From Camelus dromedarius (Eukaryota): 64,000 nucleotides of DNA. Position 1 is the stretch's first letter; the number at the start of each line of letters is the position of its first letter. The stretch is taken from the NCBI RefSeq assembly GCF_036321535.1, contig NC_087436.1:15314001-15378000 (forward strand). The letters are read 5' to 3'. Below, piece by piece: positions 17,816-26,733 of this stretch. The notes under the pieces are model-generated. The model worked only from the letters and a program-made list of their open reading frames with translations. It was not told where the DNA came from and did not search any database. The position numbers and the translations under genes are program-made.

Positions 17816-18006
17816 CTGGATTATCATGCGTGCACTTTGACCAGAGAATATAATCCCTCTCCTGGTTCCCCAGTGTCAGGGTGATCCCGCTGGAGCAGCA
17901 GACGGGGGTCAAGGCAAGCAGCTTGGCCGCAGAAACGGAGTAACAGTCTCTCTCCTTCACGGCCCACCGTTGACTCAGCATCATGTGATTGCAAGGGATC
18001 AGATAC
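17816..18006 (-). CDS. FHIP1A: FHIP1A coding exon E, 191 nt: (R)YLIPCNHMMLSQRWAVKERDCYSVSAAKLLALTPVCCSSGITLTLGNQERDYILWSKCTHDNP(G)
   Basis: Within ORF 17736..18074. Acceptor GTTCCAG|G, donor CAG|GTAGGA; phase 2/1. Confidence 0.95.
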
Positions 18007-18655
18007 CTGGAACGACAGAGGGCCGGCGTCAGTGTCTGTGCGGTCTGTTCCCAGCCAGCCACTACCCGAGCCACAGCCAGGACCAGTCACATCTTCTCCC
18101 CACCTCACTCATGCATCCTGCCAGCCCTGAGGGCTCACTCTTTTATGAAAACTTGTCAAGGGCTTCTCCCTTCTGTAAGGGCCTTCACACTTCATTCTCC
18201 ACACGCGGCCCCATCTCTCCACAGCTCTGCCATCCCTCTGTGCCTCCGAGCCTGTGCACCCACTGCTACCTCCCCCTGCAGTGTGCCTTCCGCTCCCCTT
18301 GCCTGACAAATGCCTGGTCACCCTACAAAGTCTAGCTTCTGTGTCACCTTCTCCAGGAAGGCTTCTAGGCTTCCTACTCCAACACAGAGCCACTCTCTGC
18401 CTCCCACGATGCTCACAGCCCTCTCCTAAGGCACTGTTACCAGTATCACAATTATGTCTGTGTCTGCCTTCTCAATATAATGTGCTACCAGAGCCAGCGC
18501 CTCCTCCAATAGTTTTGTCTCATAACCTCAGAAACTCTGGCTCAGAGTGGGTACCAAATGACAACAGTGGCAGAAAAAGGCAAAGAACCCATCATAGTGC
18601 AAATCTCCTCTTGTATTCTCATGGGTGATCTCTCACCAGCTCCAGTGGGGGGGTG

Positions 18656-19298
18656 TGTAAGTGGTAGGGGGTGGTCCCCACACCACCAAGCAAGATGTCC
18701 TTCTTTCCAACTAAATTCCAACAACATCTACCCAGAGAGAGCAGCCCACCCCACACACAGGTCAAGGGTTCAGTCCTACAAGACTGCCCCTCCCCAACCC
18801 TCAACACACAACACACTTCAGATGCCAATACAAGTCCAAGTTGTCACTTGCGCTCCTGACCAATCGACTATAAATCAGAGGTTCTAACAACCATTGCCTT
18901 GGGTTCAATGAATTTGCTAGAGTGGCCTACAGAACTCAGAAACATTTTACTGACTAGATCACTGCTTTATCATAAAAGGATATAACTCAGGAACAGCCAG
19001 ATGGCAAGATGCACCGGGTAAGGTACATGCGGCAGGGAGCGGAGCATCCATGCCCTCCATGGGCAAGTCTCTCTCCCAGCACCTCCACGTGTCCTCCAGC
19101 CCTGAGGCTCTCCAAACCCAGTCTTTGTGGGTTTTTACGGAGGTTTCATTACGCAGTCACGGATGACTGAATCATTGGCCACTGGCGATTCATTCAACCT
19201 CTAGCCCATCTCCCCTCCCCAGATATCAGGGGATGGGTGGAAAAAGAAATAGGGAGAAGACTAAGCGTATAGTTCTTATTACAAATCAGAGTACGATA
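18656..19298. mobile_element. MER21-like LTR element
   Basis: Recalled hallmarks: CAGTCCTACAAGACTGCCCC, CTTCAGATGCCAAT, CTATAAATCAGAGGTTC, AATTTGCTAGAGTGGC. Confidence 0.75.
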
Positions 19299-22200
19299 GT
19301 GGCCAAGGACTCACTGGGGAGCGCTGGGCCCCATTTCACACAAAACGCTTTTGGTTGGTGATCAGAGCCTCTTGGTATCAGTATGAAGCTGGAAAGAAGA
19401 AAACCCGGGCAACTGTTTCTGACACACTTGGAGCACAACACAGGCTTTGTGGGTAGAACAAAGTGCCTTTAAATAGCTTTCTTTCTTAACAGGGAGAAAG
19501 ACCATGCTGTTTACTTAAACAAAGATGGAACAAACTGGATGGAGGTCTCACGGCCAGAGCCAAGTGTCCCATGTCTGTGCAGGAGCCAGTTCCAGAGACC
19601 CTGAGCCTGTATGTGAACAACCACAATCTTCAATAAACCAGAATGTTTTTGTTTCTGTGTTTAGGTTTTGAGAAAGAGGCAGTACAAAGGAATACAAGCT
19701 ATGATTAAGGATTCAGTGAAACAGGTAAAAGTACAACTTCCAGGGTATGTTTGGGGCCAGTAAACATTAAGCTTCTGTTCCTCCTGCAGCTCCTGTTCAT
19801 CTGAAAGAGGAAAACCTGTTTACATGAATGACTGACAGACTGCGAGTGCCTGAGTCCAGGCAGAGAAGAGATTTCATTTTCTTCATAGCATTTTACACTC
19901 AAAGGCCTTAATAACTTTCAAAGGATAAAATGATAAATTTGCACTTAACCTTCCATTTTCAAAAACAAATGAAAAAAATCAAACTGTGCTTCAATCAGCC
20001 CAAACCTAACTATGTAGCAGGTAAGGGGTCCTAGTCTCCCCTCCCCACATACAACACACACACACACACACCTGAGCCAAAATGGCTATCACTAAGATCC
20101 AGGCACACCCGCAAGTCTTATGTGGTGGCGTCTGTTTTCCTATGTTCAGCTGCGTGAAAGTCAAAGCTTATAAGAATAAGAAGGAAGGACAGAGGAGGGC
20201 AGTCTGGGAAACAGAGCAGTTCTGTTCTAACTCCTGGCCCAGCTTTGGGAACATGGACCTGAGCCCTACGGGAGAAGAAACAGATGCTGGAGGTAGAAAA
20301 TGAAGGCGCTCTTTTCACAAGGATTTCTGGGGGAAGAGATGTTTTGCTGACCAAGAATGATGCTTCTCCCACCAATCTGAACCCAGCACCGCTCTCGCCT
20401 TGAAGACACAAGGAAAAGCAGTGCCTCTCCAACACTGCAGGCCCCATGTGCTCTCAGGACAGGGGAGGGCTCCAACCCAGGGAGCTCAGCAGATGAGGAG
20501 GCCACGGCCAAGGTGCTACAGTAGCCGTGGTGGGGGACAGGCTTGTCCGCGAACGCATGTAAGACCCCTCCCTTGGGACCCTCCCAGAAGTGATGGCTGA
20601 TGCCAAGGTCTTAGATGAGGGGCGGGGTTAAGAGGCAGGGAAACCTATCCTGTGGGTGTTGACATGAACCCTCCTGTTCTCATAAGCTGGTAAGGCCCAA
20701 GGAAATTCAGATCGCACAAGATTTATTGTATCCTTATTTTGATTATTAATTATTTAAGAAATAAACTGCTTTGATGCTTTTATATACTGCAGGAACTCAA
20801 CGACTACTTATAGCCCAACCCAAGCCTATTTCATGATTAAAGCCGATATACATAGATTTCTACTCTTTGTTTGAAGTACTGAAAAAAAAAAAAAAAGAAC
20901 ACTGGATCAAACCTAATAAAGCTATTTATCAAGTATCACCAGTGGGTAGCTTGAAACTGTATTAGAATAAAGAGTTACTGGGAATTTGCAACTTTGCAAA
21001 TACACGCCTTCAGTAGAAACCAAGAATTTTCTTCGGAGTAAATCGAATAAAGGAAGATCCCCATAGGTTGAAGGAGGAGGTTCTTTCTATAAAATTGGAA
21101 ATTGGAGAGTCAGCTCAAATGAATAACACTCTGTATTCAAAGCAGCTCTCCTATTACTGTGCCTTTATAATGAAGGACTGTCCTGGGGGAGAGCAGGAAA
21201 ACCATACATGGTCACTCTGTCTTTCCGTCATTTACTGGGAAAGATGAGAAACAGAATAAAATCAGAAGCTCCCCAAGTGTCAAGTATCGAAATGAAGTGG
21301 CTGAATAGCAGAAAAATCACTTAGGAATTCAGTATAGATATCTGTCATCAAACTACATTTAAACTACACTTATTTTGTTTGGGGATATTATTTAAACTCA
21401 GAAAGTGGTAAAAAAATGATCAGAGACTAGTAAATGACTGATTTGAGAGATCCAGCTTACTCAACACCATCCCGCAATATAGCAGGAAAAAAAAAATATT
21501 GCCCACATTGTCCGCCCTTTTTTCATGATTTCCCCAACCCTCTGGAACCCTGGATCTGTTTTCTGTTTTCCTGGATATCACTCATTAAAACAAATCATTA
21601 TCACTTTCGAAACAATTCAGTAACAACCAATCAATAACAAGGGACATGTATTGTCTATTGCTACAATGACAATAAAAACAAACAAAGCCGTGAAGTCCGA
21701 GGATGTAAACACAGTGCTTCTTATGAGATGTTATCATCAATGCACCAAAAGGCAAAAATCTCAAAAGCAACCTTAGTGAATTTCAAATACTTGTTAGTTT
21801 CACAAAGACATCCTGGCCATATTTCTCCTATTCGTCTTACCCTAGGCTGACTTTTTTTTTTTTCCCCTCTCCTCTAGACACCTAACACCCATACAAAATG
21901 GAAATGTTTCTGAAGTGCTCGCGCAGCTTCTCTTCAAGCAAAGCAGCCTCTATCTGAATACAGCAGGCAATGCAGTTTACAAGCCTGACAAAGGACCGGC
22001 CCTTCTGGAAAAAACACCCCAACCAGAATGTTCAGAAATAGGCATTCAGGGTATTAAGCAATTAAATGTTGCCCAAACTGAGAAGTGCCAAGAACATGGG
22101 GGTGATGTGTCCCTTCACTGCTTGTCAGCATTTCCTGCCGGCCTTTGGTCTAACGTGTGTCACATCCCTGAAGGTGGACAACCTCTCCTTGGTTTCCTGC

Positions 22201-22600
22201 TTGCTTAAATAGCCTCTCTTCTGGGGTTCCTTATTTTAACTTACCTTTCTAGTATTTTGCTAAAGGAAATAAACAGATCAGTTACAAATGGATTATCGTT
22301 TTGCAATGTCAATAATTAAGAGTATTTGGGTTGCAACAAAAATGGATGCAGGTATTATTTATCATGTAACAAATAACTTCATTAGAAGGATTCATGTAAC
22401 CTTCATGGCTCTACTGCCTCGCAGATCTACAAGTCTGTCATGTACATTTCAATGGCTACAGTGGTAACAACAAAAAGGACAGATTATAAATCTATTTTTT
22501 GTGTCCCTTAAAATAAAATTGAAATGACTAAATAAGGACTTTTCATTGTCTTTGCTTTTGGTACAGATTCTAAAGCAGAAAAAAAACATTGTTTTCATTA

Positions 22601-23209
22601 CAGTAACTCCCTTCTTATCCCTTCTTATCTGTGGGGGATACATTCCAAGACCCCCAGTGATACCTAAAACCGTGGACAGTACCGAACCCTATATATGTTG
22701 CATTTTTCTTATACATACAAACCTATGATAAAGCTTAACTTATACATTAGGCTCAGTAAGAGATGAACAATAGCTGGTAATAAGACAGAACAATTCTAAT
22801 AATAAACTGTAAAAAATAAGTTCTGTGAATGTAGTTTCTCTCTCTCTCAAAATATCTTATTGTAGTGTCCTCATCCTCCTTCTTGTGATGATGGGAGATG
22901 ATAAAATGCCTACCTGATGAGCTGAAGTGAGGTGAGTGATGTAGGCGTGGTGATGCAGGGTTAGGCTATTCTGACCTTCCGACATACTGTCAGAAGGAGG
23001 GCCGCCTGCTGAAGGTGAGCCTGGACCACTAAGCCATGACGAGGTCACTGTTTGGGGGACGGTGTGAGATTCTACCACCCTACTCAGAACAGTGCATAAT
23101 TTAAAACTTATGAATTGTTTATTACTGGAATTTTCCATTTAATATTTTTAGACCACAGTTGACCATGGGAAACCTTGGAAAGCAAAACTGTGAGTACAGG
23201 GGACTACTA
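22601..23209 (-). mobile_element. MER44-type (Tigger/TcMar) non-autonomous DNA transposon
   Basis: TA|CAGTAACTCCC... and ...GGGGACTACT terminal inverted repeats; internal GGAATTTTCCATTTAATATTTT. Confidence 0.82.
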
Positions 23210-23641
23210 CAGTTTAAAATGCATTTTCTAGAAAATTCCCCTCCTTTAAATTTGTATGGTATATTACAGTGTCTCAAGACATTTTCACAGATATTACCAC
23301 AGTTGATCCTCCAAAAACCCTTGTGAGATACAAATTCCAAAACCAGAATAGGTCAAGAGGCTCTAACTGCATACGTTACATCTTATCATTCCAGTCACCA
23401 TTGTTCACAGCTTCGTCCTCATATTTTTAAATCTCCTTATTACTTACTGCTGCAAACTTAGTAGTAACGTTTCAAATCTATCTTCTAGTTCATTCATTCT
23501 CTCTTAATCTGTAGTTTAAATGTTATTTACCCTACTCATTTTTCATTTTAATAATTACAGTTCTTACTTCTAAAACCCCCAGCTGGTTCTTCAAATCTGC
23601 CTGTCATTTTTGCTTGATTATCAAAATGCCATTTTTGTTTT

Positions 23642-24317
23642 AACAGAAAATAACAACTATTTGGAGGGGCTATGGAGAAACTGGAATCCCATGCACTATT
23701 GGTGGGCACGTAAAATGTGCAGGCTGTTATGGAAAACAACAAAAAAAATTAGATAGAATTACCATATGATCCAGCAATTCCACTTCTGGGTACATACATA
23801 AAAGAATTGAGAGCAGGGTCTTGAGGAAAGATATCTGTACACCCCTGTTCACAGCAGCAATATTCACGACAGCCGAAAATGAAAGCAACCCAAAATGTCC
23901 ATCAGTAGATAAATGGATAAACAAAATGTGGAATAAACACTGGAAAATTATGCAGCCTTAAAAAGGAAGGAAATTCTGACACATGACACAACATGGATGA
24001 ACCTGGAAGACAATGTGCCAAGTGAAGTAAGTCTGGCACAAAAAGACAAATACTGTATGAGTCTGCTTACATGAGGGACCTAGCCCAGTCAAAGCCAGAA
24101 AGACAGAAAGAAGGGTGGCTGCCAGGAGCTGAGGGTGGGAGAAATGGGGACCTGTTGTTTAACGGGGACAGAGTGTTTCTTCTAAAAAGAGAAAACAGCT
24201 CTGGAGACCGATGGTGGTCGTGGCTATACAACAATGTGAATGCATTTAATGCCACTGAACCATATGGTTAAGATGGTAGATTTTAGGTTTTGTGTATTTT
24301 ACTACAATTAAAAATAA
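23642..24317 (+). mobile_element. Older L1 (L1MB-like) ORF2 end and 3' UTR
   Basis: CCATATGATCCAGCAATTCCACTTCTGGG, AAATGTCCATCAGTAGATAAATGGATAAACAAAATGTGG, ending ...TACAATTAAAAATAA. Confidence 0.85.
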
Positions 24318-25429
24318 TTGTTAAATGTGGGGCCGGGGGAGATCAGCAGTTCAGAGGACACAGACCGGGAACAGAGGTTTCCTCTGTGTCTCCCATGTGC
24401 CGACTTTTGTGTCTGTCTGTCCTCTCACTTGCTTTTCACAGATCCCTCAGGGATGTGCAGTAGGATTAGAAATACAGAAAGTATTAAATAAAGGGTAGCT
24501 CCTATTATCACAGTATCATCAGCATTCTCATTAAGGAAACAGAGAAGAAACTCAGGACCAGGTGGTCATGCCCGGCACCCTTTCCACAACTCCACTCAGA
24601 ACCTGTGACAACGCGCCCTCTGGGCACTTTCCGGGAAATGACTCGTCCTCACTCGCCCTAGGAATGACAGGCCTTGACATGGACATGTGAATATTTCAAC
24701 CACAAGCTGATTTCTTCACCTTTGTAAGGTACAGGTCTGGGTCTCAAAAGAAGCTTTAATACAACCTCCAAAGACAGTTCGTACACAAGCACAGCTTTAG
24801 GAGTGGATGAGGGTGATCAGAGTTCACCTCATACAGGTCACTGAACAGAAGCTTCCACCACCTGGGCTCAGTCTCACCCAGTGACCCAGAGCCGGGATGC
24901 TCTGCGTCCCCAAGCAGGGCCGGGCTCCAGGGACACGGAAAAGACAGCTGTTCTCTAGGCCATCAAAGAAGCGGCATTCGAGAATTTCACATTGAAATAT
25001 AATCAGGATTTACCCTTGCTGGAGGCAAAGTCTGGTTTTTGTCAGTCAAAAAGGATTTAACAAGTTGCTCAGATGCATTTCCTCCAGGCCCTGCTAATGC
25101 ATTCTGTCCTATCAGTAGAGACTTGAGGGGAAGCTAACGTAATCCTTTTAGGACAGATAAATGACACTCTCCCCCGACTACCCAGGGTGTTTCTTTATGA
25201 TCGGATTTGTTCTTTGCTAATGCCCTAAGATTAGCTACTGATGACCTGATCTAAATCCCTAAAATGTCCCAAACCTCTCTTTACACTAAAAAAATTAATG
25301 GGCGATACTCTCCCCTGAAACGGTAACTCCGTGAGGCCCCCACCCTTGTGCCACCACCGCCTCACCCCAACCCCAGCACTGTTACCGCCCCCTTCTGCAG
25401 GGCACCATGCACTGCACCCTTCCTCAAAA

Positions 25430-25610
25430 CAGAGGTTCTCAGACTTAGCCACCATCAGAATCCCCCAGAGAGTCTGCTAAAACACGACTTGCTGGACCCC
25501 ACCCACCCCCAGGGTTTCTGATCAGCACACAGGGGAGAAGGCCAGCAGGTGCATCCCTAACATGCTCCTGGGTGACGCCTCCACTGCTGTTCCCAGGATC
25601 TCACTTGGCC
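25430..25610. mobile_element. MER5A-like hAT-Charlie element
   Basis: CAGAGGTTCTCA...CATCAGAATC...GTTTCTGAT motif order. Confidence 0.65.
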
Positions 25611-26653
25611 ACCCTCCAACTTTTCCACGGCTACTCCGTGGGAATGCTGTCTCCACAGTAAGTCTCCTCACATCACGTCTAGACCCCAGTGGAGACCAGG
25701 GACAGCCCAAGTCTCCTCCTCTTGCCCTGCCCTCAGCTCCTCCTGCCCTTCCACCCAAGAAGGGGTCAGAGGCAGGATCAGAAAGCCCAACAAGGAAAGA
25801 GGGGGTGGAGACTCACATGCCAAGGACCTGTCTGGCTTTTTCCTTTCTGCTTCCACATCACCAGAGGGGAGTGTGGGCAGACAAACCCTTATCAGCTCTC
25901 TCTCCCTTCACAAAGCAGATGCTTCCCTAGGGGACCCTGAGAAGAGAGGCACTGCTGGGCCAAGGCAGGATTTGATGTCCCTGAGTCTCCTGCCAAACGA
26001 CCAAACTAACAACGTCTTGATAGCAGTTCATCCTGACTCCGGATACCCGTCTTCAGCCACCAGCCACTCCGTGACACCTTGCCCACCCGTACTTGGGAAG
26101 AGTGTACCTTTTCTACCTGGTATACATACAAGCCCTTTTCAATCCATCCACTCTGTGCCTTCTTCTCTTCTGAATTGTATACAGAAAGTACTCATTAAAT
26201 GTTTACTGAGTTCAATTGAAACATTCACAGGTCAGATAGTGCATACTGTAGGTGCACTGTCACGAAAGCAAGAGGCATAGAAATTACACATCCACAGCAT
26301 TTCATACTTAGGAAAGTTGTTTTCAATAACGTGAGTCGCCCAAAAATGAGCTTCTGGAGAAAGACACTCAGCTACAGATCACAAGAGCTTTCACAATACT
26401 TCTGAAAGTTTCCAAACATTCTATTTAATACTTCCAGGAGCATATTTTTAATATCATGCATTTGGCCCCCCAAAAAAACTTTTAAAGTAAAACTAAAATT
26501 AACCTTGAGAAATAATACAGAAGTGAAATTGATTTCTTGATGATTTTCTTTCTTAGAAGCACTGCCTTACTTAGCTTATGTTACCAAAGAAAAATATAAC
26601 AACAATATTAATATAGAGTTTTTCTTTAAAAGGAATAAAAGATGGCAACTCAC

Positions 26654-26733
26654 CTTAGAACTAGCTGTAACATCACATCTTCACAATGTAAACCGATGAG
26701 AGTTCTAAATAATGCCAGGGACACCACACAAAG
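26654..26733 (-). CDS. FHIP1A: FHIP1A coding exon D, 80 nt: LCVVSLALFRTLIGLHCEDVMLQLVL(R)
   Basis: Absent from the ORF track. Acceptor GCTTCCCAG|CTT, donor AAG|GTGAGT; phase 0/2, matching exon E. Confidence 0.95.

Follow-up and report, generated by a model that had tools for sequence, protein, structure and literature searches.

FHIP1A and the candidate unit in its intron

The window, a stretch of 64,000 nucleotides of the dromedary genome (contig NC_087436.1, positions 15,314,001 to 15,378,000), carries exons of FHIP1A (FAM160A1) on its minus strand. Nine FHIP1A exon pieces map to it, and their translation is free of stops. The top protein match came from alpaca (P0001), in agreement with the host gene named by an earlier, sequence-only reading of this DNA, while proteins from Camelus itself were nearer in the long exon (94-95% vs 91% for alpaca). 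The gene is an ordinary member of its kind in a camelid, and it was present in 18 of 24 listed RNA runs. The intron of interest (18007..26653, minus strand; 8647 nt, phase 2) separates an exon of 80 nt that ends in phase 2 ('D', 26654..26733, minus strand) from one of 191 nt ('E', 17816..18006, minus strand), and contains old interspersed repeats between about 24330 and 22620. A minus-strand open frame at about 29740-29400 of the window, within the intron that precedes exon D, may represent the 3' end of a LINE-1 ORF2, which it resembles.

Within the D-E intron lies a candidate cassette of 15 nt bounded by AG and GT (22259-22245, minus strand). Its 3' splice region (22260..22376, minus strand) consists of a TAG acceptor (AG at 22261-22260), eight pyrimidines and branch-point-like motifs with the A at about -23 and -19. 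The 5' splice site (22239..22244, minus strand) is a full-consensus GTAAGT preceded by AAG and, by an approximate matrix, outscores all eight true donors in the window. Inclusion is predicted to insert S-K-I-L-E between L408 and R409 (alpaca P0001 numbering), with the frame kept and no stop. Re-reading the minus strand bore out what the sequence-only reading had said of 22245..22259, namely its sequence, coordinates, strand, phase and frame, the full-consensus donor, TAG acceptor, pyrimidine tract and branch-point-like motifs, and the stop-free insert of five residues (junctions 26654 and 18006, phase 2). The setting had also been called non-repetitive, and indeed the 351 bp surrounding the unit are single-copy in the genome, the old repeats lying farther upstream in the intron; an Rfam search around the unit gave no match. 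Length (3-27/30 nt), AG and GT borders and a place on the sense strand of an intron are those of a microexon, and the preserved, stop-free frame is one that a functional microexon would have. At the same time, consensus splice sites that are missing from the annotated products are a mark of a pseudo-exon.

One feature was absent from the earlier description. The 115 nt preceding the acceptor are free of AG, a zone that includes the branch-point-like motifs. It is the longest among the 97 pyrimidine-tract AG sites in the window, where the true acceptors have AG-free zones of 13-48 nt and only 12 of 9269 AGs have one of at least 100 nt. Long AG exclusion zones characterise regulated, eMIC-dependent microexons in flies and mammals, according to PMC8797185. 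As to enhancers, the acceptor has no TGC within 25 nt, the nearest being at -46, so that the missing UGC beside the 3' splice site, noted before, is confirmed; the RBFOX motif TGCATG does not occur within 300 nt on either side.

Chance expectation in the window and the genome

With approximate splice-site matrices, whose base frequencies do not come from a tool, the unit reached 14.0 bits. This made it the top in-frame candidate in the 60 kb of introns, with a sense-strand, in-frame runner-up at 8.5 bits and a best antisense-strand score of 12.5. The same 14.0 bits were reached in 7 of 200 dinucleotide shuffles of these introns. Such a unit is thus a roughly 1-in-30 event per window, which is unusual locally, yet expected when many windows are scanned. 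An out-of-frame unit of 25 nt outscores it (15.6 vs 14.0 bits); this AG..GT unit, at 4755-4731 on the minus strand in the window's last FHIP1A intron, is either a chance pseudo-exon or possibly a poison exon.

Across the whole 2.3-Gb genome, we counted a strict form of the motif (eight pyrimidines followed by AG, n bases, then AG/GTAAGT). In-frame lengths of 12, 15 and 18 nt gave 45, 38 and 28 copies, and out-of-frame lengths of 13, 16 and 17 nt gave 39, 43 and 49, which totals 111 against 131, a ratio of 0.85 (95% interval 0.65-1.10). Since in-frame lengths are no commoner than out-of-frame ones, most hits to the strict motif are best explained as chance. Besides, regulated microexons are mostly in frame (0.74 in the neuronal and muscular clusters; PMC7821500), so the lack of an in-frame surplus argues that most of these hits are not regulated microexons. 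Any in-frame excess comes to at most about 9% of the in-frame hits (about 13% without duplicate rows), a bound that covers hits of every kind; for intronic hits in sense orientation, the true fraction might be as high as about a third, on the assumption that about 20% of chance hits are of this sort. Reversed-pattern controls yielded 40-58 per length and did not serve as the main control, as their composition differs. Motifs like the candidate number some hundreds in the genome, about 40 per length. Outside the genome, a single metagenome match to the pattern was rejected as chance (26% GC, 28 nt aligned, dissimilar flanks).

What sets the unit apart from these motifs is again its AG-free zone, which ranked first of 38 among the 15-nt hits and second of 78 once 16-nt hits were added, the ranking covering all 37 other hits of 15 nt and, of the 43 at 16 nt, the 40 that were left after two duplicates and one more row had been set aside. 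A zone of 100 nt was reached by none of the 37 other 15-nt hits and by one of the 40 16-nt hits. Further short-exon motif hits with long AG-free zones were L071 (136 nt; G000:C21:29139812-29139843), L046 (96 nt), L026 (90 nt) and L015 (81 nt). When the six other hits with the longest zones were compared with a mouse microexon table by exact 9-mer, itself a weak test, none of the six was matched.

The 14-nt length (325 copies) was left out of the frame comparison, as it is dominated by one repeat family. A 30-mer from a large repeat unit accounts for most of the listed rows of these 325 hits. This unit is clustered at a spacing of about 51-61 kb on many contigs, including many small ones, for instance at C1:40681-422456, C3:118.8-119.2 Mb, C6:82-88 Mb and C11:66-70 Mb, and on C15, C16, C22 and C23. 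At a sample locus (L080:8770-9100), it contains a frame of 110 residues, matched at 150 or more places in the genome with 76-100% identity and often without a stop. Pfam, PDB and Rfam searches with this frame returned no significant match; it may resemble the N-terminal part of TRAPPC9. The large repeat unit is possibly a gene fragment, or a gene family, that has undergone strong amplification.

Proteins, catalogues and the fold at the junction

Our sample of mammalian FHIP1A proteins comprised 120 of 415 hits with at most 15 members per cluster, 374 sequences in all, including camelid models and proteins from RNA assemblies (Logan). Of these, 338 span the D-E junction, one is a model without the upstream exon and 35 fall short of the site. 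None of the 338 spanning sequences, among the matches listed, carries an insert at the junction. The same holds for the six camelid models (P0001, P0007, P0121-P0124), one of which is an ab initio prediction. A short-fragment search listed 120 of 149 matches, 118 of them new; by our own pattern, 19 span the junction, 12 as direct joins and 7 with other inserts, and no SKILE-like insert was seen in these 19. Six of the seven inserts are longer and resemble intron read-through. The remaining one, of nine residues and unrelated in sequence, sits at the candidate's junction in a bird FHIP1B gene model (P0424) and is probably due to an alternative or mis-called acceptor.

Microexons do go missing from annotation, and the sequence-only reading had pointed to microexon catalogues as a check; the human and mouse tables searched had no entry for the unit. 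In the MicroExonator table (about 2,980 mouse microexons), chr3:84-86 Mb, the presumed location of mouse Fhip1a, is without a row on the minus strand; the coordinate search was validated by rows found at 86.8 Mb, and a motif search of the same table gave no 15-nt match. FAM160A1 was absent from the PMC8797185 supplement, in which the control APBB1 was present, and the same was true of the searchable part of the PMC4317164 files, which is not their full list. No publication was found that joins FHIP1A or FAM160A1 to the term 'microexon', a result that VastDB or further supplements could change. Among publications on FAM160A1 with 'splicing' and 'exon', none by its title concerns the unit, and nothing relevant to it appeared among the camel publications listed.

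We then consider where an insert would fall in the protein. In an AlphaFold2 model of P0001 (87-sequence alignment), L408 and R409 lie inside helix 400-411 with a pLDDT of 97, and the junction is placed three residues from the predicted C-terminal end of that helix. The modelled fold matches FHIP1B of 8QAT (E 7e-35), the cryo-EM structure of FTS-Hook3-FHIP1B (PMC11996680), whose human FHIP1B chain aligns across the junction without a gap. Of 1702 representatives of divergent homologues, 150 were compared; their alignments reach position 408 in 113 cases, and no insertion follows any of positions 385-410 in these 113. The nearest insertions come after 384 (one residue) and after 411 (15), and many are found in the loops 258-267, 324-328 and 377-382, which suggests that the block around helix 400-411 resists them. 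C399, E400, D401, L406 and L411 are at least 90% invariant. Judged from the residues, the I and L of the insert would take the places of L411 and I412, and Y410, mostly aromatic in homologues, would be substituted by K. According to PMC13759335, real microexons do occur in helices, and helix-disrupting lengths are enriched near helix ends.

At another FHIP1A exon junction (P0001 325-328), eleven divergent FHIP homologues (P0270, P0305, P0321, P0375, P0280, P0323, P0319, P0293, P0274, P0285 and P0325) have an insertion of 13-17 residues, which may stem from an exon or splice site used alternatively outside this lineage.

Interpretation and comparison with known microexons

Taken together, we favour the reading that the candidate is a silent or noise-level pseudo-exon in the FHIP1A intron, to which we assign a probability of about two in three; this figure and the weights given to the three alternatives are judgements based on the counts. 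By chance, a good acceptor would have come to lie 15 nt from a consensus donor where the intron is AT-rich. Skipping is what we infer, as an exon of 15 nt is hard to define unless an enhancer helps: the unit would be below the size that ordinary exon definition needs and, as neither UGC near the acceptor nor TGCATG offers a recognisable enhancer, the spliceosome would join exon D directly to exon E. Any inclusion would stay at noise level, and the protein would keep helix 400-411 as it is. The unit has the shape of a microexon but lacks the UGC and RBFOX motifs, and we keep it as a candidate rather than file it as a microexon.

The long AG-free zone and the position near a helix end make it possible that the unit is a real exon of restricted distribution, a cassette microexon of camelids or artiodactyls that some tissues include by virtue of its strong core signals, without recourse to SRRM4. 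Placed close to where helix 400-411 ends on its C-terminal side, its five residues could then lengthen the helix without breaking it. The window's strongest donor, the good acceptor with branch-point-like motifs and 115 nt free of AG, the unique sequence and the stop-free frame speak for such an exon, as does a junction three residues from the predicted helix end, where disruptive lengths are enriched (PMC13759335); the species-specific, unannotated Cltc exon of mouse and rat offers a precedent (PMC13676984). On the other hand, none of the six camelid protein models carries the insert, the strict motif has no in-frame surplus, K would replace a mostly aromatic Y410, and none of the six other hits with the longest AG-free zones was found in the mouse catalogue by the weak exact 9-mer test. 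We therefore rate a lineage-restricted exon as unlikely, at a level that still deserves attention. Its fuller form, in which a microexon born in camelids or artiodactyls and independent of SRRM4, recognised by its perfect donor and by the 115 nt without AG before its acceptor, is turned on in one particular tissue and lengthens helix 400-411, otherwise free of indels, giving a tissue-specific FHF dynein adaptor with altered partner or cargo binding, is a long shot.

The proposal made at the outset went further, to a conserved mammalian neural or muscle microexon that tunes FTS-Hook-FHIP assembly or cargo binding. It can draw on a strong donor and long AG exclusion zone that match the published architecture (10.1101/2024.09.17.613571, PMC8797185), on the quarter or so of SRRM3/4 microexons in which UGC is missing (10.1101/2024.09.17.613571) and on the association of FHIP1A with Hook1 and Hook3 (PMC8730729). 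The indirect evidence nevertheless leans against conservation and regulation: none of 338 mammalian proteins from many species, among the matches listed, has the insert, no row appears in the mouse region or in the other tables searched for human and mouse, the strict motif has no in-frame surplus across the genome, UGC and TGCATG are both absent, and no publication was found linking the gene to microexons. We hold this proposal to be quite improbable. Least credible of all is that the signals belong to another unit, either a cryptic exon of greater length, of which they would mark one end, or a site of recursive splicing. Together with the same donor, an acceptor farther upstream, at 22506, would make a 262-nt exon, but that acceptor is weak (1.0 bit), and all other donors within 300 nt fail to score above 0. 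In a recursive site, the donor directly follows the pyrimidine-tract acceptor, an arrangement typical of much longer introns, whereas the sites here are 15 nt apart in an intron of 8.6 kb.

As a pseudo-exon, the reading that we prefer, the unit is of little importance. Were its inclusion to be shown, it would define an FHIP1A isoform absent from annotation, whose insert falls in a block devoid of insertions across divergent animal homologues, and would allow a test of whether splicing, besides the choice of paralogue, diversifies FHF dynein adaptors. It would also be an example of a young microexon, within a well-known class.

Set against known systems, the candidate resembles intronic pseudo-exons in its consensus acceptor and donor deep in an intron, its absence from annotated products and a motif that is frequent by chance; it differs from typical ones in being very short and frame-preserving and in its unusually long AG-free zone. 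It is likewise unlike the known FHIP1A isoforms, none of which, among those listed, carries its insert. With the SRRM3/4 (eMIC) neural and islet microexons of 3-27 nt, it shares length, frame, a strong 5' splice site and a long AG exclusion zone. In that class, UGC lies between branch point and AG in 74-79% of cases, about a quarter being without it, and the pyrimidine tract tends to sit farther from the AG (10.1101/2024.09.17.613571); the candidate lacks UGC, a typical rather than strict feature, and its tract abuts the AG instead of being set back. Like the RBFOX/PTBP1-regulated micro-exons described in PMC4317164, it is a short cassette in a coding intron, yet the (U)GCAUG that such exons have in the flanking intron is not found here, TGCATG being absent for 300 nt to either side. 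The nearest parallel to a lineage-restricted exon is microexon 33 of Cltc in mouse and rat muscle, species-specific and unannotated, and shown by RNA and mass spectrometry (PMC13676984). That exon alters the C-terminus, while the present candidate would be an in-frame insert; both are unannotated and lie in trafficking genes, and the candidate, like the Cltc exon, is possibly restricted to its lineage.
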